UHGV virus genome: UHGV-0214677
Source of the DNA: a virus
DNA length: 10,432 bases
Reading direction: 5' to 3' (one strand)
In this document: positions 1 through 10,432 of the stretch, in pieces
Layout: every line of letters starts with the position of its first letter
Numbering within the stretch: position 1 is the first letter of the stretch
Made by a program: the position numbers and the translations under genes
The notes under the pieces: generated by a model
Databases searched by the model: none
What the model saw: only the letters and a program-made list of their open reading frames with translations
Told to the model about the DNA's origin: nothing

Positions 1-201
1 ATAATGTCGCTACCGCAGGAAACGAAAGAGGAAAAGGAATTTCGCCATTGTATATGGCTTGCAGAGAAAGAAGAACGCGAGCGAATTTACCAGACATCAA
101 TCCGACCATTCCGCAAAGCCACATATACCCACTTCCCTGAATATATCGACCCGCGCCTGCGTAATTACCGCTCACGCTATGGCGCTATCAGTAATGACTG
201 A
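1..201 (+). CDS. Hypothetical prophage protein, probably 3' part of a gene that begins upstream of the window
   Basis: Frame 1 is open from nt 1 with an ATG at 4 and stop TGA at 199-201. The translation ([16 protein letters not shown]...) is protein-like, and the next gene follows 10 nt later with its own SD. No family recognised. Confidence 0.4.
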
Positions 202-211
202 GGAATTTACC

Positions 212-376
212 ATGAGAGGACTTGCATACAATCCCGGCATTCTTCCGGCAGAAATGATTATTCGCCAACGCGTAAAGCCAATGCCATCGAGAGAGGAATT
301 GCTTAAGAGAAATAGTTTCGGTTCTGTTAATGACAACAAATATCTGAATGCGATGTGGCGGAGTGGGAAAAAATGA
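212..376 (+). CDS. Small hypothetical prophage protein (54 aa)
   Basis: ATG at 212 preceded by GAGGA (200-204). Stop TGA at 374-376 overlaps the ATG of the next gene (ATGA). The longer ORF-track call 59..376 would overlap the previous gene out of frame and has no SD. Confidence 0.4.
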
Positions 377-972
377 AACAAATGTCACTAATTGAGATGG
401 ATGGTTTTCTGAAAGGTAAATGCATCCCAAGTGATTTAAAGGTTAACGAAACAAACGCTGAGTATCTGGTGCGTAAATTTGCTGAAGCGGAGGCCAAGAT
501 TTCGGCTCTGTCCGAAGACCACCAGAAAGCGATTGAGTCAATTAAGCAGGCTGATGCGGCTGTTAAGTTGGCACACGAGAAGTTTTCGGCGCTGGCGGCG
601 GAGAATGCGGGGCTGAAGGGTGCGTTTGATAAGCCTCAAGCATATCTATCCTGGCACGCTATTCCACCAAGCTGGGAAGACCCGCTCCCATGCGGTGAAT
701 ATCTTGATGTTCATGACGAGGCAGGACACAAAAACTCCGATGGAACTGATTGCTGGCCGGTATATGCCAAGCCAGAAATCGAGACCACAGCCACCTACGC
801 ATTCCTGGCTGAAGTACGGGCGCAGGGGGTAGAGATGTACGCAGATAACCTCGACAACGGAGCAGACGACGCAGAACGAGGTGGTTTTGATTATGCCGTT
901 AAGTTTCTACGCAGTGAAGCGTCTGGTGTACGTTTGTTCGCCGACCAGCTTCGCAAAGGAGGCAACCAGTGA
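373..972 (+). CDS. Hypothetical prophage protein
   Basis: ATG at 373 preceded by GGAG (359-362), in frame with the ORF-track call 355..972. Stop at 970-972 overlaps the GTG start of the next gene. No family recognised. Confidence 0.55.
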
Positions 973-1829
973 GCAAGATTGATTATCAGGCACTGCGTGC
1001 TAAGGCAGAAAAAGCAACGTGTGGCGAGTGGTCTCTCGAGTATGGAGAGGGCCGATTTGATGGTGATGATGCACTAATTCATCGCGAGGCTGCTGGATAT
1101 ATTCCCATTTGCAGAATTGAAGGAGCGCATCCTGAAAGCGGTTTCGATGAAGATTTCCAAATAGAACAGCAGGCCAATGCTGAATTCATCGCCGCAGCCA
1201 ATCCGGCTACCGTCTTGGCGCTGCTGGATGAACTGGAAAGAAACCAGCAATACATCAAACGCCGCGACCAGGAGAACGAGGATATTGCGCTTACGGTTGG
1301 GAGGCTGCGCGTTGAGCTGGAAGGCAAAGACAGCAAAATAGCCAATCTTACCGCCGAACGCGATGCTCTTCGTGAAGGTGAGATGGGCGACGCTAGGCAT
1401 AGCAACACACGGGCCGCAGCTGATATCTACTTCCAACTGGTCGAGGAGTGCGAAATTCCTGCTGGCGGTTCTCTGGTCGAGTACGTTGACGATATGCGCG
1501 AGAAGCTGGAAGCCGCAGAGAAACGTCTGGCAGAACTACAATCTAAATCCATGCGACCTGTGGCGTGGATGAGAAGCGACGATATTACTACATTTGGACC
1601 AATATTCACCAAGAACGAAAACTATGCTGTTGAGCAGTGGGGAGATAATGCGGTAGCGCTTTATGCATCCCCAGTTAATTTCAAGTTGGCATGCTTCACT
1701 GACGAGAGAAATCTTAAGTACATCAATGAACGAGGAAGGGAGACATCTCTCATCTGGAGCGAAAGAAATTCAGAAAATGGTGATGTTCAACTTTTCCGCG
1801 CCGCAGGCATTCGCATCAAAGGAGAGTGA
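969..1829 (+). CDS. Probable Ead/Ea22-like prophage protein
   Basis: 286-aa ORF with GTG start at 969 preceded by AGGAGG (957-962). N-terminal 'DYQALRAKAEKATCGEW' and a central coiled-coil-like acidic region resemble the Ead/Ea22-like family of lambdoid prophages (recalled, not searched). Confidence 0.65.
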   Translation: MSKIDYQALRAKAEKATCGEWSLEYGEGRFDGDDALIHREAAGYIPICRIEGAHPESGFDEDFQIEQQANAEFIAAANPATVLALLDELERNQQYIKRRDQENEDIALTVGRLRVELEGKDSKIANLTAERDALREGEMGDARHSNTRAAADIYFQLVEECEIPAGGSLVEYVDDMREKLEAAEKRLAELQSKSMRPVAWMRSDDITTFGPIFTKNENYAVEQWGDNAVALYASPVNFKLACFTDERNLKYINERGRETSLIWSERNSENGDVQLFRAAGIRIKGE

Positions 1830-1830
1830 T

Positions 1831-2118
1831 ATGGCAACTTTGCAGGAATTAATCGACCTGACGCCGGAACAGGAAAAAGCGTGGAATCGCCTTGTGAAGG
1901 CTGTAAAGGATTTCAGGGCATCCGGAGGAAAGTTTTATAGCGTCCTGGACACGCTGAGCGCATACAACGGTGAGCACGTTGCCAGCATTGATAACGATAA
2001 GGGCTACCACACTGCAAGCGTCTATATGCCTAGCATTGATGCGCCAGGGCTAACCAGTTGGGCTGATGATTGGCACGGCATCACGCTGAAAGATGGCGTT
2101 GAAGTGGATGAGGACTAA
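1831..2118 (+). CDS. Hypothetical prophage protein (96 aa)
   Basis: ATG at 1831 two nt after the previous stop, preceded by GGAGAG (1821-1826), in frame with ORF-track 1663..2118. The upstream part of that ORF overlaps the previous gene and is unlikely to be translated. Confidence 0.5.
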   Translation: MATLQELIDLTPEQEKAWNRLVKAVKDFRASGGKFYSVLDTLSAYNGEHVASIDNDKGYHTASVYMPSIDAPGLTSWADDWHGITLKDGVEVDED

Positions 2119-2121
2119 CCC

Positions 2122-2814
2122 ATGACCACTATTACCAAAGAGCGACTACTGACAATCAAGCAGTGGCGCGAAACATACGGACCTGGTAGCAACGTTGTAC
2201 TGCCAGCAGAAGAAGCGGAAGAACTGGCACGAATTGCACTGGCATCGCTGGAAGCAGAACCGGTGGCGTGGATGCGTGATGACGCAGATGGTCGTGAGTA
2301 TAACGCTCGCAATGAATTTTCTGATGGAGGGAAAGGAATTCCGCTATATCGTGTGCCGCCAGCGCCGGAAGTGCCGGAAGAAATATATTGGCAGGATGCG
2401 CCAGTTGAAGGCAGCATCAAAGCGGCTGCATACGCTACAGACTGGAACGCCTGCCGCGCCGCCATGCTTCATGGTGCCAAACCTGTAAGCCAGACTTACA
2501 AGTTAAACGAGCTGTCGGGCAACTCTCCGGTAACTCCGGATGGTTGGATAAGCTGTAGTGAGCAGATGCCTGTAATCGGCGAGCTAAATTGGAGAACTAG
2601 TTTTCCTTTACTGGTTACGTGTGAGATCGGCGTTATACCTGCTTATTACGGCTTTGTGAGCGTTAATGGTGATAGGCATTATGGCTTTATGGAGAGTCTT
2701 AAATACGGAGACGATAACGGCAACCATCCTCAAACTAATGAATATGGTCTGATTAGCAATGTCACACACTGGATGCCTCTACCAGAACCGCCTCAGGAGG
2801 TTAACCGTGGCTAA
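2122..2814 (+). CDS. DUF551-family prophage protein
   Basis: 230-aa ORF with ATG at 2122. The C-terminal '...THWMPLPEPP' matches the signature I recall for DUF551 proteins of enterobacterial prophages. Stop overlaps the next gene's start. Confidence 0.65.
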   Translation: MTTITKERLLTIKQWRETYGPGSNVVLPAEEAEELARIALASLEAEPVAWMRDDADGREYNARNEFSDGGKGIPLYRVPPAPEVPEEIYWQDAPVEGSIKAAAYATDWNACRAAMLHGAKPVSQTYKLNELSGNSPVTPDGWISCSEQMPVIGELNWRTSFPLLVTCEIGVIPAYYGFVSVNGDRHYGFMESLKYGDDNGNHPQTNEYGLISNVTHWMPLPEPPQEVNRG

Positions 2815-3088
2815 TCTGCAACTTGCCGTTAAAGGTGAATACTTCGATGCCATGATTCGCGGGGAGAAAACGGAAGAGTATCGCTTGTGTAATGACTACT
2901 GGAATAAGCGAATTATGTTCCGGGAGTATGACCGCCTGATTATCACGAAGGGATATCCGAAGCGCGACGACTTCAGTCGCAGAATTGATGTCCCGTATGA
3001 CGGATATGAAATCAAGACAATCACACATCCCCACTTCGGCGATAAACCGGTAAAGGTATACGCGATAAAGGTGAATATCAATTGCTAA
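2807..3088 (+). CDS. Hypothetical prophage protein, possibly ASCH/PUA-like fold
   Basis: GTG at 2807 preceded by a perfect AGGAGG (2795-2800) with 6-nt spacing, in frame with ORF-track 2759..3088. Overlaps the previous stop by 8 nt. The fold assignment is a weak guess. Confidence 0.5.
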   Translation: MANLQLAVKGEYFDAMIRGEKTEEYRLCNDYWNKRIMFREYDRLIITKGYPKRDDFSRRIDVPYDGYEIKTITHPHFGDKPVKVYAIKVNINC

Positions 3089-3089
3089 A

Positions 3090-3199
3090 TTAGTAGCATA
3101 GCATAAAGATGCTTGCATTAATGAAGTGTGTATAATAACGCCTCATCAATAGTAAACTACTGAAATAGCAAAAAATGCATATTAAAGAGGATTCGAAAA
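3090..3199 (+). promoter_or_regulatory. AT-rich intergenic region with candidate sigma70 -10 element (TATAAT at 3121-3126)
   Basis: Consensus TATAAT hexamer in an AT-rich spacer upstream of the 3200 ORF. The nearest -35-like TTGCAT (3104-3109) is only 11 nt away, so the promoter architecture is unresolved. Confidence 0.3.
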
Positions 3200-3391
3200 T
3201 TGAAAATGTTCATGCAAATAGACAGACGCATAGATATTAATGGCAATTCATACTTAGTTAGATGCGAAGAGAGGCCTAACGGTGAGTGGCGTGTATATGA
3301 TATTGACCGTAAGATCAATATCAGCACCATGAACAAAGACACTGCCTTTGATGAATGGAAAGCTGAAGCTAAAAAACAACATAATTCGTAG
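3200..3391 (+). CDS. Small hypothetical protein (63 aa)
   Basis: ORF with TTG at 3200 (ATG alternatives at 3206 and 3212) preceded by AAAGAGGA (3184-3191). Lies in the AT-rich region. No family recognised. Confidence 0.4.
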   Translation: MKMFMQIDRRIDINGNSYLVRCEERPNGEWRVYDIDRKINISTMNKDTAFDEWKAEAKKQHNS

Positions 3392-3471
3392 AATTACAAA
3401 AACCCTAACCAATTGATGGATTTCTTTTATCTGAACTCGCTACGGCGAGTTTTGTTTTATGGAGATGATAA

Positions 3472-3639
3472 ATGCACTTCCGAGTCACAGGTGAATGGAA
3501 TGGAGAGCCATTCAACAGGGTTATCGAAGCAGAGGACATCAACGACTGCTATAACCACTGGATGATATGGGCGCAGATAGCACATGCAGACGTAACCAAT
3601 ATTCGAATTGAAGAACTGAAAGAACACCAAACCGCCTGA
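3472..3639 (+). CDS. Small hypothetical protein (55 aa), below the ORF-track length cutoff
   Basis: ATG at 3472 preceded by GGAG (3461-3464). Translation MHFRVTGEWNGEPFNRVIEAEDINDCYNHWMIWAQIAHADVTNIRIEELKEHQTA. Stop TGA at 3637-3639 sits in the loop of a canonical terminator hairpin. Confidence 0.5.
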   Translation: MHFRVTGEWNGEPFNRVIEAEDINDCYNHWMIWAQIAHADVTNIRIEELKEHQTA

Positions 3640-3655
3640 TGGCGGTTTTTTATTG
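3630..3655 (+). terminator. Rho-independent terminator
   Basis: Stem ACCGCC (3631-3636) / GGCGGT (3641-3646) with loop TGAT, followed by TTTTTTATT. Confidence 0.7.
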
Positions 3656-3696
3656 CCTGATTTGCAGGTTCGATTCCCTATTCGGAGATAGCACTC

Positions 3697-3897
3697 ATGC
3701 AACACGAACTACAGCCTGATTCACTGGTTGATTTGAAATTCATCATGGCCGATACTGGCTTTGGTAAAACCTTCATCTACGACCGTATTAAGTCCGGCGA
3801 CTTGCCAAAAGCCAAAGTTATCCACGGGCGAGCAAGATGGTTATATCGTGACCATTGTGAATTCAAAAATAAGCTCTTAAGCCGCGCCAATGGGTAA
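3697..3897 (+). CDS. AlpA/Xis-family DNA-binding protein (probable excisionase or integrase regulator)
   Basis: 66-aa ORF with ATG at 3697 preceded by GGAG (3684-3687). The pattern 'LKFIMADTGFGKTFIYDRIKSGDLPKAKVIHGRARWLYRDHCEF' matches the AlpA-family helix-turn-helix signature. Sits immediately upstream of the integrase on the same strand. Confidence 0.8.
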   Translation: MQHELQPDSLVDLKFIMADTGFGKTFIYDRIKSGDLPKAKVIHGRARWLYRDHCEFKNKLLSRANG

Positions 3898-4109
3898 AAT
3901 AGCGGGTAAAATATTTCTCACATCTAAAAAACACCATTCCAATCAATCCCCTGCCGCCTCAAGTAGATGTCTGCAGGGGACACCATTTACACCTCTCCTG
4001 AAATCTACCATATCCCATAAAAAGCCTTTATAATCAGTATATACCCTTACTTATGTTACTCAAATAGTCGCCGTGATTCTCCTCAGGGGTACGTAAATCA
4101 AGTCACATT

Positions 4110-4159
4110 TGGGGGCCTATTTAGGGGCACATATTGGTCAATCTATTGCGAGGCCCCCA
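4110..4159 (+). promoter_or_regulatory. Perfect 9-bp inverted repeat spanning the integrase ribosome-binding site
   Basis: TGGGGGCCT (4110-4118) and AGGCCCCCA (4151-4159) are exact reverse complements 32 nt apart. The right arm contains the GAGG Shine-Dalgarno 7 nt before the int ATG. Confidence 0.3.
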
Positions 4160-4160
4160 G

Positions 4161-5351
4161 ATGCCACTGACAGCTCGACAAGTTGAAACAGCCAAACCCA
4201 AAGATAAAATTTATAAAATTGCCGATGGTGGTGGGCTCTACCTGCAGGTCAATCCTAACGGCTCAAAGTACTGGCGAATGAAGTACCACTATGCAGGGAA
4301 GGAAAAGAAACTATCATTTGGCACCTATCCAACTATTACATTGGCTGAAGCTCGCAAACGTCGGGATGAAGCCAAGAAAATACATGCCGATGGTAAAGAC
4401 CCCGGTGAAGTCAAGAAAGCTGAAAATCTTGAGAAAAACCTTTCTGAAGGAAGAACTTTTGCCACAATCGCCACCGAGTGGTACAACGCAAAAGTTTCAG
4501 GCTGGTCGGCCAGCTACGCTGATTATGTCGACAGAGCATTCAAAAATAATGTGTTTCCCTACATTGGAAACAGACCCATCAGTGATATCGAACCTCTTGA
4601 ACTTCTCGCAGTTCTTCAGCGTATTGAAAGCCGCGGAGCCTGCGAGCTAGCTAATAAAGTTCGCCAACGATGTGGTGAAGTGTTTCGGTATGCCATTGTT
4701 ACAGGTAGGGCTCGATACAATCCAGCCTCTGATCTGGTTATAGCAATGAAAAGCCATAAACGAACACATTACCCATTCCTGCTTCCTCCTGAACTACCAG
4801 AGTTTTTGTACAAACTCGAAAACTACACCGGCAGTATTGTAACCCGTGAAGCTACAAAATTGTTGATGCTCACAGGGCTGAGGACCGTAGAATTACGTAT
4901 GGGGGAATGGTGTGAGATCGATTTTTCCCAAAAAATATGGGAAGTGCCTCCGACCCGGATGAAAATGAGGAAGGAACATATTGTTCCCCTCTCAAATCAG
5001 GCAATTCGGTCTCTCCAAATCCTTAAAGAACTGACGGGAAGATACAGATACATCTTTGCCGGAAGAAATGATGTTAACAGGCCTATCAGCGATGCAAGCG
5101 TCAATATGGTTTTGAAGAAGATTGGCTATGACAAAAAAGCTACCGGGCATGGTTTTCGTCATACAATGAGTACTATTCTACATGAGAAAGGATTCAATAG
5201 TGCATGGATTGAAATGCAACTTGCACATACGGACAAAAACAGCATTCGTGGTACATACAACCATGCTCGTTACCTTGAAGGAAGACGAGAAATGATGCAA
5301 TGGTACGCTGACTACCTTGATGCTATTCGAAAAGATTCCCCAGCTATATAA
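4161..5351 (+). CDS. int: P4-family (DUF4102-type) tyrosine integrase
   Basis: Typical N-terminus 'MPLTARQVETAKPK...GGGLYLQVNPNGSKYWRMKYHYAGKEKKLSFGTYP...LAEARKRRDEAKK'. C-terminal catalytic signature present: R in 'GLRTVELR', 'HGFRHT', and Y in 'IRGTYNHARY'. ATG at 4161 with SD is preferred over the in-frame TTG at 4134 used by the ORF track. Confidence 0.9.
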   Translation: MPLTARQVETAKPKDKIYKIADGGGLYLQVNPNGSKYWRMKYHYAGKEKKLSFGTYPTITLAEARKRRDEAKKIHADGKDPGEVKKAENLEKNLSEGRTFATIATEWYNAKVSGWSASYADYVDRAFKNNVFPYIGNRPISDIEPLELLAVLQRIESRGACELANKVRQRCGEVFRYAIVTGRARYNPASDLVIAMKSHKRTHYPFLLPPELPEFLYKLENYTGSIVTREATKLLMLTGLRTVELRMGEWCEIDFSQKIWEVPPTRMKMRKEHIVPLSNQAIRSLQILKELTGRYRYIFAGRNDVNRPISDASVNMVLKKIGYDKKATGHGFRHTMSTILHEKGFNSAWIEMQLAHTDKNSIRGTYNHARYLEGRREMMQWYADYLDAIRKDSPAI

Positions 5352-5489
5352 TCACTTGATTTTAAAGGCTGACTTAACGAAATACCTTGATAGTCATTTA
5401 TCAGTAATCTAATAGTTAAGTCAGTCATAATCCCCTAAGTATCACTCCTCAATCAGTTTCAGCACATTGTTGACCTGTCTCCAGTATTC

Positions 5490-5913
5490 GATACAACCAT
5501 CAGTCAGCCTGCTGGCACGACGTTGCGACAGACCCGTTGCCTCACACATGACTTCCACGGCTTCCCACTTCTGTTCTGTCGTCAGAATTTCGGTCCAGAG
5601 CTACCTGAAGTACCTCCTTATCCAGCATGGTTTTGGCGAGCAGCGTCTTGAGGGGTCGTTCTCCTCTTCAGGTGTCTTAAGCCGCTTTACCTCAGGGACT
5701 TCTATTCCACCAAACTTCGGCGCCCGGTGTAGAAAGTAGCGTCTGAAATAGCATTCTTGCGGCAGAGTTCCCGGGCAGAAACGCCGGCTACGGCCTCGCG
5801 GAGGATACTGATAATCTGTTCGTCGGAAAACACTTCTTCATGGGGATACCCTAACGTTGCTGATGAAGACATTACTTACATCGTGGTATATTAATAAATG
5901 TGGGAGCAGGTCA
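5490..5913 (-). mobile_element. Degraded IS3-family insertion sequence remnant (IS407-group-like orfA with frameshifts, truncated at its distal end)
   Basis: The - strand reads MSSSATLGYPHEEVFSDEQIISILREAVAGVSARELCRKNAISDATFYT... from ATG at 5870-5872, then breaks frame. Other frames continue with '..EVPEVKRLKT..', '..LLAKTMLDKEVLQVAL..' and '..VEVMCEATGLSQRRASRL', typical of IS3-family OrfA and the OrfB N-terminus. A terminal-repeat-like TGACCTGCTCCCA (reverse complement of 5901-5913) lies 41 nt outside the ATG. The inner boundary near 5490 is approximate. Confidence 0.6.
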
Positions 5914-6058
5914 ACTCCACAATGCAGTCCACTGAGGGAAGAGATCATTAGGTGCAAAGGATCTACATTAGTGGCTGAAAACAACTAGAATTTAGAATTA
6001 AAAAGTTTTATCCTATATTAGTAAGTATTTTTGTTAACACTTTTGTAAGGATACTTTT
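5914..6058 (+). promoter_or_regulatory. Very AT-rich leader and probable promoter region of the SIR2-like/DUF262 operon
   Basis: About 145 bp of AT-rich non-coding DNA between the IS remnant end and the first cassette gene, with several TATA-like hexamers (for example TATATT near 6015) and an AAGGA SD at 6044-6048. No single -35/-10 pair can be assigned confidently. Confidence 0.25.
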
Positions 6059-7108
6059 TTGAGCAGCGAAAAAAAAAAGAAAGTTGGGTTAATGCTTGGG
6101 AATGGATTCACTATTGACCTCCTTAGCAAAATGGACAAACTTGATATAATTGACCCATCCGATCTATTTAAATATGGCGATATGGTTAAGTGGCCCGCCA
6201 CTGGGGAACCCGGTTTTCTTTCTGCTCGATATTGCCCAAATCTATGGCGATTGGGTGCAAGACCCGGGCTAAATAGAACCGCATCATATCAAATAATAGA
6301 AGAATTAATTACAGTAATAAATTTATATGCAACTCTACCTCCAGAAACAATAAAGAAGAAAAATCAGGCAAGTCATACTCCATTGTCAAACATTTACATT
6401 TATGCTTATCAAGAATTAGTTTCATATTTAAGGGAGCTTTTCATTGATTATAACGAAAAAGTTTCCTCTGAAGATCTACGTAAGTTAGAAAGTGGCTGGC
6501 GAGACTATTTGATGAAACTGGACAAAAACGAAAACATAGAACGAGTTGATATTATAACTTATAACTATGACATTTATCTTGAGCGCCTTCTTGATTTACT
6601 TAATATCAGATTTGACATCCCAAACATATCTGACGGGAATGCAAAGTTTAAAATATACAAACCACATGGCTCTATTAGCTTCTTGTATGAAGGATATATG
6701 TCAAAAGATAACTACAATATCCAAAAAGAGTTATCTTTAAATAATGGCGACATATCAAAATTCGAATGCCGGCATGAAAACTTAAGCCTTTACATGCCAT
6801 TAATTCCAATAATACCGCCAGCAGGAGAAGCTCATCGTTATGCCCAAAACTGGGCTAATTCAATTAAAGAGTCTATTGAAGCGACGATGGAGTCGTACAA
6901 CCCAAACGATGATTTCTTCATTTGTGGTATTTCATATTGGCATGTTGATCGTGCCGAAATTGATGCAATAATACGCAAAATAAACAGTGACGTTAATGTT
7001 AGAATGATTAATCCAGGAAATGTTGATGGTTTAAGTGCTATACTTGGAATGGTATTTAATAGTTATGTTCATCATTCATCATCTGAAGTTTTAAAGGAGC
7101 TTGCCTAA
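6059..7108 (+). CDS. SIR2-like (DHS-like NAD-binding, SIR2_2-type) protein; candidate NAD+-consuming effector
   Basis: 349-aa ORF. Three motifs occur in the order expected for SIR2-family defence proteins: a Gly-rich N-terminal loop 'VGLMLGNGFTIDL', 'DIITYNYDIYLERL' (compare the TTNYD motif; predicted Asn ~169) and 'KIYKPHGSISF' (compare the KLHGS motif; predicted His ~203). Start is TTG at 6059 (SD AAGGA at 6044-6048) or the in-frame ATG at 6092. Stop TAA at 7106-7108 overlaps the next start. Confidence 0.6.
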   Translation: MSSEKKKKVGLMLGNGFTIDLLSKMDKLDIIDPSDLFKYGDMVKWPATGEPGFLSARYCPNLWRLGARPGLNRTASYQIIEELITVINLYATLPPETIKKKNQASHTPLSNIYIYAYQELVSYLRELFIDYNEKVSSEDLRKLESGWRDYLMKLDKNENIERVDIITYNYDIYLERLLDLLNIRFDIPNISDGNAKFKIYKPHGSISFLYEGYMSKDNYNIQKELSLNNGDISKFECRHENLSLYMPLIPIIPPAGEAHRYAQNWANSIKESIEATMESYNPNDDFFICGISYWHVDRAEIDAIIRKINSDVNVRMINPGNVDGLSAILGMVFNSYVHHSSSEVLKELA

Positions 7109-8136
7109 TGGAAATTTTAAAGCGGGATTCAAACAGTATTAATATTGCTTCCTTTTGGGAGGGCTTTTCATTAGGCAAATTTAATTTTGATCCTCCTTAT
7201 CAAAGAGATAGTGTTTGGGATGAAGAAAAACAATCATTCTTTATAGATAGTATACTACGTAACTATCCAATTCCCCCTATATTTCTCCATCAAAAAATTG
7301 ATGATGACACCGGAAGAATCACGTTTGAAGTTGTTGACGGAAAACAGAGGCTCACTGCCATTGTTAATTTTATCAATGGCCAAATAACATCAGCAAGTGA
7401 GGAAGAAGATGATGAATTGACTGGTGTGTTTTTTTCCGATTTATCAACTTCTAAATATGCAGAAGTTAAAAAATTATTCTGGCGATATCAGATGCCTATA
7501 GAGTACATTGATACTGAAGACGAAAGAATAATTGATAGTATTTTCGACAGGCTTAACAGAAATGGTGAACGACTTAACGGACAAGAGTTAAGGAATGCCA
7601 AATATCATGATACTGATTTTTATAAAAAAATAGTAGAATATTCACAACGTGAATATTGGCAAAAATTGCTAGAGCACGTTGATAAGAAGAGAATGGAAGA
7701 CAAAGAGTTTGTATCTGAATTGATATTCACGATCCTTGAGGATGAAGTATTTGGTGCAACTCAAGACATAATTGATAGTCTTTACGAGAAGTATTGCACC
7801 AAGAATGGTGATGAAACAAATGAGGCATTTTCTATTTTTGAAAAAACAACTGACTATTTAGTTGATATGAATATTGATTTCAAAAGTCATAAAGCAAGCG
7901 GTGTTAGTCACTTATACGGAATCTTCAGTTATGCACTTTATTGCAGTAACAATAATGTTCCTGTAGAAGAAGCGTCAAATAGACTTTCCACCTTCCTGGA
8001 TAGCTTGTGGGAAAAAGATACACAACATAATGCGGAATTAAGAAGAGAATATAGAAAAACTATGAGTTCTAGCACAAAAAGCAAAACCCAACGCTCACGT
8101 AGAATTGAAGTGCTTTTAAATCTACTTCACGATTAA
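7108..8136 (+). CDS. DUF262 / ParB-like nucleotide-binding domain protein without a C-terminal HNH (DUF1524) domain
   Basis: 342-aa ORF with ATG at 7108 overlapping the upstream stop (TAATG), preceded by AAGGAG (7093-7098). N-terminal 'FDPPYQRDSVWDEEKQSFFIDSIL' and 'EVVDGKQRLTAI' match the two signature motifs of DUF262 (the GmrS / SspE N-terminal ParB-like domain). No His-Me/HNH-like motif is visible in the C-terminal ~140 aa. Confidence 0.75.
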   Translation: MEILKRDSNSINIASFWEGFSLGKFNFDPPYQRDSVWDEEKQSFFIDSILRNYPIPPIFLHQKIDDDTGRITFEVVDGKQRLTAIVNFINGQITSASEEEDDELTGVFFSDLSTSKYAEVKKLFWRYQMPIEYIDTEDERIIDSIFDRLNRNGERLNGQELRNAKYHDTDFYKKIVEYSQREYWQKLLEHVDKKRMEDKEFVSELIFTILEDEVFGATQDIIDSLYEKYCTKNGDETNEAFSIFEKTTDYLVDMNIDFKSHKASGVSHLYGIFSYALYCSNNNVPVEEASNRLSTFLDSLWEKDTQHNAELRREYRKTMSSSTKSKTQRSRRIEVLLNLLHD

Positions 8137-8148
8137 ACTATATAATAG

Positions 8149-8177
8149 TAGGAGTGAACTTCGCTCCTGCTTTTCTC
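8149..8177 (+). terminator. Possible weak intrinsic terminator downstream of the DUF262 gene
   Basis: AGGAG (8150-8154) ... CTCCT (8164-8168) can form a short stem, followed by GCTTTTCTC. The stem is short and the loop long, so this is tentative. Confidence 0.3.
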
Positions 8178-8788
8178 ACTCTATCTTTTATTATTTCTCT
8201 TTGAGATATGAAGTAATACTTTAAAAATATAAATCACATTCATCGCATATGATATTGTGATATCCCCACATGGTGCATGTTCGTAGTCTATCCCTCAGGC
8301 AAATAATAATAGAAAGTTAACCGAATCAGTTATACTCTCACCCAGATATTAGGATGGCTAAATCAACATGAGTGCAAGGATCGTCTTGGGGGAAACATTG
8401 GCACTGTGTGATGGCTCATCATTAAAAAATCAGTTTATATCAAAAGTAAATGATTACAGAAAAACTATATTTATAGATAAAGAAAAAAGCATTTAATTAC
8501 TTCTTAAATATGATAATCACACTCTGTGAAATGATACTTTGACTTACTTCCAATTATTAAACCACGAGATTCATGCATTACCATAATCATTTAAGAAAAC
8601 AAAAGTCCGGCCTTTGCTCTTATCAACCACTACAATTCATAAAGAAATCCTGTTGATGCAAAAAAAAGACATTGATCACAATATCGAGTTAATCATTTGA
8701 AAGTTTATTACTCACATTGAAAAATTTCTCAGTATCAGATATACCAACGTTGAGGGCTTCCCTCTTACATCTCAAAAGGATAACTATC

Positions 8789-8917
8789 ATGGGTCTTAAA
8801 CCAGGTCCAAAACCAATTGCTAAATCGACAGGAAAACCGGATCAACGCCGACGAGATAATAAAGATACTCCTGGCAACACTCCGGGACTAAAGCCAAGTA
8901 AGTCCACCGGGAAGTAA
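8789..8917 (+). CDS. Small Lys/Pro/Gly-rich hypothetical protein (42 aa)
   Basis: ATG at 8789 preceded by AAGGA (8775-8779), within ORF-track 8717..8917, whose TTG start has no SD. Translation MGLKPGPKPIAKSTGKPDQRRRDNKDTPGNTPGLKPSKSTGK is low-complexity. No family recognised. Confidence 0.3.
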   Translation: MGLKPGPKPIAKSTGKPDQRRRDNKDTPGNTPGLKPSKSTGK

Positions 8918-8922
8918 AAAAT

Positions 8923-8951
8923 CAGGGTATAAATAAGTTATTTATACCCTG
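8923..8951. terminator. Perfect palindromic hairpin between convergent genes, probably the terminator of the - strand gene remnant
   Basis: CAGGGTATAAATAA (8923-8936), G, TTATTTATACCCTG (8938-8951): 14-nt arms that are exact reverse complements. An A-run (8916-8921) on the + strand gives a U-tract after the hairpin for the - strand transcript. Confidence 0.55.
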
Positions 8952-8965
8952 ACTACATATCCAGT

Positions 8966-9861
8966 TTACTGAAGGTGTTTCTGCAGCCAGATGCACGTTC
9001 CTTCTGTATCATACGCCTGTGCCCCATACCCTGTAGCAAGCAAAGTCTCTGGTAAATACTCGTCATATTTATCCAGGTACTTGTCAGGAACAACTGCAGC
9101 AAGCTCAAACTCTGAAGGTAACCCCGACAATAACATTTTCTTAAGTGCACGCTGAACAGAGGCAACGCCTGAGCCCTCTACCTCTATCACACCTGCAAAT
9201 GAACTGGCTTTAAAGCCACAACGTATAAGCAGGGACGTAATTGTATTGACAATTTTATCCCCCATCCACGGGATCACGTAGCAGTTCTGACCACTGGCAA
9301 TAAAACAGTGATTTTGTAGATTGTAGCGTTGGAAGTTGTCACTTCCTTCCGCGAAGAGGCTTCTGGCTGCGGCATCAGCATAATCAACTCTCTTGTTGCC
9401 TACCGCGATACGGTAATCATTTTCCCTGTAGATAGCGAGCATCTCCTGGCGAACAACATCATGAACAGACATCCCGCTACCACTGAATAGTGGTGGCTGC
9501 CCGCCTTTAGTCGCCTCAACATAGATAGCTTTTTTTCAACCTCGATCTCTGTCACTTTCCAGCGCTGTCCGCCGAAGATGATGTGCTGCTCCGGCAAAAG
9601 TGGGGAGTCTACAGGCACTGTGCCAAGAGTTCGGTTTCCCGTTACAATGCGAAACTCCTCAGATGTATTGAATACGGCATAAAACGTGTAGTGATTAATC
9701 AGCTTCTCCCCCTCAGCCCCGACAACTATTTAACCGCTGGCTAGTTGAGTGAGCAGGCCACATGTCCCCATATGTTTAAGCAGACTTTTGAAGTCATTTA
9801 TATCCACATTCCGGAACGGACCTGTCTGGCAAAGTTGTGACCAGAGCTGATCGGCACGAAC
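8966..9861 (-). pseudogene. Disrupted gene of unknown function (C-terminal remnant with frameshift and in-frame stop, truncated by IS insertion)
   Basis: ORF-track fragments 8966..9472 and 9400..9618 are adjacent frames of one reading frame, broken at a 7-T homopolymer (9530-9536). Further upstream the reading continues in the same frame as the 9400..9618 fragment but is interrupted by an in-frame TAA near 9735, and the coding sequence runs directly into the IS end at 9862. I could not assign a family. Confidence 0.6.

Positions 9862-10432
<571 letters not shown>

Follow-up and report, generated by a model that had tools for sequence, protein, structure and literature searches.

DUF262 proteins such as GmrSD, BrxU and SspE possess a C-terminal DUF1524 His-Me nuclease of their own. 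What, then, is the role of a DUF262 protein that stops where this nuclease would start? The question is raised by a stretch of 10,432 nucleotides (nt) of the UHGV virus genome UHGV-0214677 (hereafter, the window), which contains a DUF262 gene located directly downstream of a SIR2-like gene on the same strand (Table 1). The DUF262 protein and the three enzymes have the ParB/Srx-like domain with three motifs in common, but their nuclease is fused, whereas the presumed effector here is the separate SIR2 protein encoded upstream. The two genes probably constitute a translationally coupled defence module, in which a DNA sensor would signal to the SIR2 protein, nicotinamide adenine dinucleotide (NAD+) would be degraded and the infection would be aborted. 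As the DUF262 protein lacks an intrinsic nuclease and its gene invariably has a SIR2 gene as its neighbour, the protein most likely represents one half of an uncharacterised two-gene anti-phage system.

Domain composition and predicted structure of the DUF262 protein

A Pfam search revealed GmrSD_N/DUF262 (PF03235) as the sole domain of the 342-amino-acid (aa) protein (E 3.7e-27, 96 bits vs. a cutoff of 33); no match to DUF1524 or HNH was found anywhere in it, which agrees with the first-pass annotation of the window, where the lack of a nuclease half had been pointed out. The three NTPase motifs of the N-terminal ParB/Srx-like DUF262 domain (QRxxxW, DGxQR and FxxxN) are all present and, in an alignment of 44 homologues (45–94% identity to the window protein), the stretches YQRxSVW, DGKQR and FDRLNRNGE are invariant. 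The C-terminal half contains 14 invariant positions, including those of the RMEDxEFxSE and GVSHLYG blocks. The only invariant histidine of this half is H268, and inspection of the invariant residues by eye revealed no DHxxP/HNH, HD or HEPN (Rx4-6H) patterns; the region is thus free of an HNH-like histidine motif, as had been stated earlier. The C-terminal 173 aa (aa 170–342), scanned separately, gave no significant Pfam or PADLOC match, and noise-level matches to CARF_HEPN (0.08) and RNase_J_C (0.13) were set aside. NCBIfam offered nothing useful for either protein of the pair.

The first-pass annotation had also described the end of the protein as a basic, Ser/Lys/Arg-rich tail. The basic sequence RREYRKTMSSSTKSKTQRSRR is indeed present at aa 312–332, but it is a conserved motif located in a confidently predicted helix-loop-helix, and not a low-complexity tail. 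In this motif, Y315, T323, R329 and R332 do not vary, and the conservation of M319 is at least 90%; the motif is a plausible candidate for contacts with phosphate or DNA.

AlphaFold 2 modelling, which used the family alignment as input, yielded a structure with a mean predicted local distance difference test (pLDDT) score of 87, containing no strand beyond residue 134 and ten helices across residues 158–340 (block pLDDT mostly 89–98). Since no β-strand follows residue 134 in the model, the ββα His-Me finger is absent; the model of the full-length protein, which is all-helical beyond residue 158, lends no support to a His-Me, HEPN, HD or other nuclease fold, and the search for a cryptic nuclease fold suggested earlier thus ended with none. 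The structural matches of the model were limited to BrxU, SspE, DndI and CTP-bound ParB; Foldseek also matched CTP-bound ParB and Noc, with probabilities of 0.96–0.99. The aligned lengths with BrxU, SspE and DndI, obtained with the full-length model, comprised 166–195 residues and extended beyond the ParB core. When the DUF262 family alignment was used as a profile against PDB sequences, no match was obtained even at E <= 1.

The C-terminal helical domain is not a nuclease; it is probably a DNA-binding domain of the "ParBDB" type, as found after DUF262 in NsnA, GmrSD, SspE and DndB. This assignment is suggested by the match to the NsnA model, which spans aa 11–340, and by the alignments with BrxU, SspE and DndI exceeding the ParB core, in agreement with the proposal that NsnA-C, GmrSD-M, SspE-M and DndB-C represent one DNA-binding domain (PMC12065111). 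BLASTP alignments to other DUF262-only proteins cover the RMxDxEF block and, in one case, extend to the C-terminus.

A full-length family and the downstream DNA

A search of 5.8 billion proteins revealed 1,504 homologue clusters of the DUF262 protein at E <= 1e-5. The best 120 of these clusters are about 340–360 aa long and show 94–100% query coverage, including the C-terminal motif, the exception being the 258-aa fragment P0023. Scanning a single genome per species revealed 80 same-length loci of the DUF262 gene, distributed over Proteobacteria, Bacillota, Bacteroidota, Verrucomicrobiota, Nitrospirota, Planctomycetota, Campylobacterota and other phyla, as well as the archaeon Methanimicrococcus. 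A nuclease-free DUF262 protein had been regarded in the first-pass annotation as an exception; the homologue searches and the literature (PMC12065111) indicate that such proteins are common.

The non-coding stretch that follows the pair (8137–8965, 830 bases) contains no open reading frame (ORF) in any of the six frames. Because of this and of the stops in all six frames, no displaced nuclease-coding remnant is present downstream; no HNH-coding sequence occurs there in any frame, and the homologues share the length of the window protein, so the check for a truncated GmrSD gene that had been proposed earlier came out in favour of an intact DUF262 gene. A scan of 5600–8800 found promoter-like sites to be no more frequent than in shuffled sequences, and no terminator-like site 3' of the DUF262 stop codon.

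The SIR2-like partner

The protein encoded upstream has 691 homologue clusters, which are full length. Its AlphaFold 2 model is confident (pLDDT 89.7, predicted template modelling score 0.90) and shows a SIR2 fold, the nearest structures being the defence SIR2 proteins PsSIR2, SIR2-HerA and ThsA. The family profile lines up the TYNYDIYLER block with FTTNYDLLMEQ of PsSIR2 (8w9l) and TTNYDRWIE of the KomC NADase, and the KPHGS block with the matching blocks of PsSIR2 and KomC. Conservation of the motifs, as read from 45 homologues, is given in Table 1. The catalytic Asn and His known from ThsA- and DSR-type NADases are, in our view, located in the TxNYD and KPHGS blocks.

Pfam and PADLOC scores of this protein are low: AbiH (PF14253) reached 23.0 bits vs. 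a gathering cutoff of 30.9 (E 9.7e-5, aa 99–311) and SIR2_2 18 bits vs. 24.5 (E 0.0028), both below threshold, while the PADLOC SIR2 models gave weak matches with E from 1e-3 to 5e-2. For these reasons, we call the partner a divergent SIR2 protein. AbiH itself has been described as sirtuin-like (PMC13064643).

An insert at aa 37–69 (6167–6265), which separates the first strand of the SIR2 fold from its first long helix, is strongly conserved and family-specific (F..G....WP....GFLS...CPNLW.LGARP), with weak support, by consensus only, for its N-terminal ~13 residues (aa 37–49). For the remainder of the insert, we know of no counterpart among the motifs of other SIR2 families; the insert might serve in regulation or as an interface.

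Coupling of the two genes

The genes overlap at a TAATG junction, and a Shine–Dalgarno sequence, AAAGGAG, is located 8 nt upstream of the DUF262 start, within the 3' end of the SIR2-like gene. The SIR2 gene is found directly upstream of the DUF262 gene, on the same strand, in 76 of 76 loci with upstream DNA; the remaining 4 of the 80 loci end at a contig edge before the SIR2 position. Overlapping junctions prevail (69 of 81; −4 nt in 30, −8 in 15, −1 in 11), and the gap does not exceed 5 nt in 79 of 81. Pairwise identities of the DUF262 and SIR2 proteins correlate (r = 0.82, Mantel p <= 0.001, 70 loci). The pairing is obligate. A profile search of 1.84 billion representatives revealed 14,429 relatives of the DUF262 protein, and the best 150 of them include no fused SIR2–DUF262 protein (about 690 aa).

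Clustering of the flanking ORFs revealed no third gene conserved across the 80 loci; it yielded only a C-5 cytosine methylase gene, found in 31 loci, and the restriction or Vsr companions of this gene. Two further clusters of flanking ORFs were rejected as antisense shadow ORFs.

Broken copies occur as well. The SIR2 gene is split by a frameshift or stop codon, or deleted internally, in five loci (L005, L031, L038, L076 with the internal deletion, and L081), and in two others (L051 and L079), a frameshift or stop codon divides the DUF262 gene into two ORFs; the module therefore decays in some lineages. Two SIR2-linked relatives of about 540 aa, P0254 and P0264 (L093, 2948–5632), which adjoin a serine recombinase gene, have an additional C-terminal extension of ~200 aa with no Pfam match.

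Effectors of related DUF262 proteins

Most of the complete proteins among the best 150 relatives are 340–430 aa long and align with almost the entire profile, the shorter fragments matching it in part. Four relatives of 410–450 aa (P0300, P0315, P0374 and P0376) match the profile to position ~343 and then contain, directly after position ~345, a Pfam HNH domain (about aa 370–420); this is the classical PF01844 and not DUF1524. The gene of P0300, the context of which was inspected, stands alone, with no SIR2 neighbour. In L095 (4001–5260), the gene of such an HNH-fused relative has his biosynthesis genes on one side and ligA on the other, and no obvious island surrounds it. Relatives P0283 and P0295 (345–360 aa) have an overlapping RelA_SpoT gene downstream and no SIR2 gene; P0283 shares 34% identity with the window protein along its entire length. 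Members of both sister clades, HNH-fused and RelA_SpoT-linked, match the family profile end to end with 160–230 bits. The published separate effectors include HEPN in PD-T4-2 (PMC9519451, Table S1) and an ABC ATPase with a BECR RNase in Menshen (PMC12065111).

Since HNH, RelA_SpoT, HEPN, ABC ATPase/RNase and SIR2 all occur with DUF262 bodies, the DUF262-plus-helical body stays the same and the effector varies. A putative effector swap is supported comparatively, and the suggestion made in the first-pass annotation, that the nuclease was replaced by the SIR2-like partner, gains from the existence of sister clades with the same body and other effectors.

Three loci deserve a closer description. 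In a lambdoid prophage (L098, 2587–6005), the gene of a DUF262 sister (34% identical over the full length) is flanked by a methylase gene of the Eco57I type and a RelA_SpoT gene, both of which overlap it, and on the contig of P0295 the RelA_SpoT gene is followed by a pair encoding an AAA_15/AAA_21 ATPase and a DUF4276 (AbiL-like) protein; DUF262 with RelA_SpoT looks like another uncharacterised sensor–effector system. At the icd-site prophage end of Escherichia phage vB_EcoM-689R6 (L091, 2420–4131), a more distant DUF262-only protein of 350 aa (NsnA model, E 8.5e-32) is encoded 8 nt before the gene of an unrelated 216-aa protein with no PADLOC match, the two directly following the prophage integrase gene; they may be a pair of DUF262 and an unknown effector.

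Comparison with described systems

Menshen, PD-T4-2 and Dazbog are established examples of DUF262 sensors whose effectors are separate proteins (PMC12065111; PMC9519451, Table S1; 10.1101/2022.08.27.505566). The best PADLOC match of the window protein is NsnA of Menshen (E 1.9e-39, aa 11–340 vs. model positions 51–379 of 385), which likewise consists of DUF262 and a helical C-terminal domain and has been proposed to be a DNA sensor (PMC12065111). Menshen, however, also comprises the ABC ATPase NsnB and the inPIN-BECR RNase NsnC, and neither is found in the window or in the 80 loci, which have an upstream SIR2 gene instead. PD-T4-2 of E. coli ECOR65 is similar to the window pair in being composed of two genes, for a DUF262-only protein of ~360 aa and a separate small effector (PMC9519451, Table S1), but that effector is HEPN and not SIR2; the PD-T4-2_A model gave a weaker match than NsnA (E 1.4e-27), and the window contains no match to a PD-T4-2 partner (B) model or HEPN, and no further ORF for it. 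Dazbog (DzbAB), too, is a two-gene system with a DUF262 protein and acts by abortive infection, for which a phage CCGG cytosine methylase is the trigger (10.1101/2022.08.27.505566), but its DUF262 gene comes first, whereas it is second in the window; no PADLOC match to Dzb models was obtained at E <= 0.1 for either protein, the presence of Dzb in the library being unconfirmed.

The partner shares the SIR2 fold and the Asn and His motifs with the defence proteins SIR2-HerA/Nezha, PsSIR2, ThsA of Thoeris, DSR, SIR2-pAgo and Avs5. The defence SIR2 proteins are paired with or fused to HerA, SLOG, pAgo or a STAND ATPase, whereas DUF262 is the only conserved neighbour of the window partner, and its sequence similarity to the defence SIR2 families and to lactococcal AbiH is below the family thresholds. 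The locus is distinct from Menshen, PD-T4-2 and Dazbog, and the partner lies outside the described SIR2 systems. Nor does the DUF262 protein belong to the GmrSD family, as it has no DUF1524, though it resembles the sensor half of GmrSD-type enzymes and NsnA. Full-text literature searches, which did not cover the supplements of the Menshen paper, revealed no description of a SIR2 and DUF262 pair, nor does PADLOC v2.0 contain a pair of models for it; on these grounds, we consider the pair to be a new combination of a DUF262 sensor with a detachable effector.

Proposed function and alternative explanations

From the domains and motifs, the missing nuclease, the SIR2 fold with its conserved catalytic-type residues, the obligate pairing and the alternative effectors, we infer a defence role, a direction of signalling, NADase chemistry and a trigger. 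The DUF262 protein, with its ParB/Srx-like NTPase and helical DNA-binding domain, would recognise foreign DNA, most likely by the state of cytosine modification. Binding and hydrolysis of a nucleoside triphosphate (NTP) would serve as the switch, as in GmrSD, BrxU and SspE, for which an NTP-driven switch has been shown (summarised in PMC10952713, PMC12065111). The signal would be passed to the separately encoded SIR2 protein, in place of a fused His-Me nuclease, and the activated SIR2 protein would degrade NAD+ and the infection would be aborted. The context fits a defence role, given the island with a tRNA-associated integrase, the Shango remnant, the presence of the pair in 27 of 5,426 complete E. 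coli genomes and the restriction–modification (R-M) genes that adjoin the pair in other taxa.

Several points weigh against this explanation. Defence, NADase activity and the formation of a complex are computational predictions only, and the data do not distinguish which of the two proteins is the sensor and which the killer. The partner, being a divergent SIR2 protein, could catalyse a different reaction, such as ADP-ribosylation or deacylation. The ParBDB assignment combines a claim from the literature with a hidden Markov model (HMM) alignment and a structural match, both over the full length, the domain-level match being not significant.

A possible, though rather doubtful, alternative partly overlaps with the proposed mechanism and specifies the trigger: the pair might be the killing arm of a methylation-linked, R-M-like system, in which a C-5 methylase marks self or invading DNA, the DUF262 protein reads the mark and the SIR2 protein fires. 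A C-5 cytosine methyltransferase gene lies within 5 kb of the pair in 31 of the 80 loci, from several phyla (a raw count, obtained without control neighbourhoods), often on the same strand and less than 100 nt away, upstream or downstream; examples outside the window are L022 2347–3381, L032 2929–3936, L035 6078–7178 and L082 2992–3879 (loci L011–L090). Genes for Vsr, HNH or restriction enzymes of the NgoMIV or Cfr10I/Bse634I type frequently accompany it. The Pfam family seen most often in the 129 nearest-neighbour ORFs was DNA_methylase (14), with NgoMIV (5), Bse634I/Cfr10I (3), HNH (3) and Vsr (2) also found, together with unrelated ones, e.g., Recombinase (3) and DUF4145 (3); the 25 most frequent neighbour families of these ORFs include no N6-adenine methylases. 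Two described systems point in the same direction, namely Dazbog with its CCGG methylase trigger (10.1101/2022.08.27.505566) and the ParB-like AbiR system, which is toxic without the LlaKR2I methylase (PMC13064643). The proximity of the methyltransferase genes hints at cytosine modification as the sensed cue. Nevertheless, an adjacent methylase is missing in 49 of the 80 loci and in the E. coli window, and R-M genes cluster with defence genes in general. A more specific and still more tentative suggestion is a widespread unnamed abortive-infection system converting a cytosine-modification read-out into NAD+ depletion, often with an adjacent C-5 methyltransferase; if true, it would be an R-M-like system of self/non-self discrimination whose "restriction" arm kills by metabolite depletion and not by DNA cutting.

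It is unlikely that the roles are reversed or shared, with the DUF262 protein being toxic (as an NTP-dependent nuclease or nickase, or by nucleotide depletion) and the SIR2-like protein acting as a sensor or regulator through, e.g., signals derived from NAD+/ADP-ribose or ADP-ribosylation. Sister DUF262 bodies are joined to the known effector or toxin domains HNH, RelA_SpoT and HEPN (PMC9519451), which argues for DUF262 as the constant sensor and for the partner as the variable effector, and the closest structures of the partner are defence SIR2 proteins, including ThsA and KomC, described as NADases.

Quite improbable is a role outside defence, either as a toxin–antitoxin-like addiction module of the island or in ParB-like partition or housekeeping. 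A tight two-gene operon on mobile elements and a ParB fold would suit an addiction module as well, but the spread of the pair is patchy (as in E. coli), its neighbours are R-M genes, the Shango remnant and integrases, the best HMM matches are the defence proteins NsnA and PD-T4-2_A, and a ParA or parS-like context is absent.

Finally, the idea that the DUF262 gene is a pseudogene or remnant of a GmrSD/BrxU-type Type IV restriction gene minus its DUF1524 half, for which one might invoke the decaying island with insertion sequence (IS) debris and the cut Shango gene around the pair, and BrxU and SspE as the closest solved structures, is hardly credible and is already refuted by the conservation data: the 1,504 clusters, the best 120 of them about full length apart from P0023, the equal length in 80 loci of many phyla, the C-terminal half with 14 invariant residues and a confident fold, and the lack of a downstream coding remnant.

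DUF262 is the sensor of several defence systems, and the communication between sensor and effector is understood only for the fused nuclease. The relatives described above offer a natural series, where one sensor body is combined with fused HNH, SIR2, RelA/SpoT, HEPN or an ABC-ATPase/RNase pair. In the case of SIR2, the sensing of modified DNA would be linked with NAD+ depletion. The architecture will not surprise a specialist, but the family is large and phylogenetically broad, and PADLOC v2.0 fails to recognise as a pair this candidate system, which occurs in one archaeon and many phyla of bacteria. As the SIR2–DUF262 pair is present in E. coli, it is directly testable.

Genomic context of the pair

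The coordinates of the pair and of the surrounding features are collected in Table 1. The island carrying the pair has a tyrosine integrase gene that adjoins tRNA-Arg in locus L001; the site in E. coli is argW tRNA-Arg/yfdC. The second defence system of this island, Shango, is dead: only a C-terminal fragment of the SngC helicase gene is left and, in E. coli records, this region is annotated as a DEAD/DEAH pseudogene and IS1203. Since the SngC fragment is cut by an IS3-family element, the island can be described as a decaying defence island. A frameshifted transposase fragment, annotated in E. coli records at ~5500–5870 on the minus strand, between the integrase and SIR2-like genes, is a further sign of decay around the intact pair.

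Table 1. Features of the window discussed in the text (positions in the 10,432-nt stretch).
Feature	Position	Strand	Evidence or remark
Tyrosine integrase of the island carrying the pair	4134..5351	+	Pfam Arm-DNA-bind_3, Phage_int_M, Phage_integrase
SIR2-like gene, predicted NADase effector, first of the pair	6059..7108	+	349 aa, TTG start
LGNGFTID, Gly-rich loop after the first strand, position of the SIR2-fold NAD-binding loop	6095..6118	+	G14, N15, G16 invariant (45 homologues)
TYNYDIYLER, equivalent of the SIR2_2-type TxNYD motif	6557..6586	+	N169 at least 90%; Y170, D171 invariant
KPHGSI, equivalent of the SIR2_2-type KLHGS motif	6659..6676	+	K201, P202, H203, G204, S205 invariant
GISYWHVDRAEID, third family-wide block (GxSYWHVDRxExD)	6926..6964	+	G290, S292, Y293, V296, D297, R298, E300, D302 invariant
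TAATG junction, SIR2-like stop overlapping the DUF262 ATG by 1 nt	7106..7110	+	Sequence read
DUF262 gene, predicted NTP-dependent DNA sensor, second of the pair	7108..8136	+	ATG start, 342 aa
DUF262/GmrSD_N (ParB/Srx-like) domain, aa 27-166	7186..7605	+	Pfam PF03235
Motif I, YQRDSVW	7198-7218	+	Inside the DUF262 domain
Motif II, VDGKQRL	7333-7353	+	Inside the DUF262 domain
Motif III, FDRLNRNGE	7543-7569	+	Inside the DUF262 domain
C-terminal all-helical domain, aa 170-342	7615..8133	+	Helices only (AlphaFold 2), conserved blocks
Block RMEDKEFVSE	7690-7719	+	Conserved, C-terminal domain
Block GVSHLYG	7900-7920	+	Conserved, C-terminal domain
Basic motif RREYRKTMSSSTKSKTQRSRR, aa 312-332	8041..8103	+	Consensus YKKSMSSxTKSKxQRxRR, helix-loop-helix, block pLDDT 82-95
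AT-rich non-coding stretch 3' of the pair	8137..8965	.	Stops in all six frames; E. coli records without annotated feature
Shango SngC helicase, C-terminal fragment	8966..9472	-	PADLOC SngC, E 4.9e-30, model positions 564-719 of 720
IS3-family (IS1203) transposase fragment, cuts SngC	9904-10422	-	Pfam rve domains

The match to the 27 pair-bearing E. coli genomes is restricted to positions 3971–10432 of the window, of which 3971–3985 correspond to the last 15 nt of the tRNA-Arg beside the integrase in locus L001. Positions 1–3970 belong to a different element, composed of phage genes of unknown function and an AlpA/excisionase-like gene (3697–3897); this arrangement suggests tandem mobile elements at one att site.

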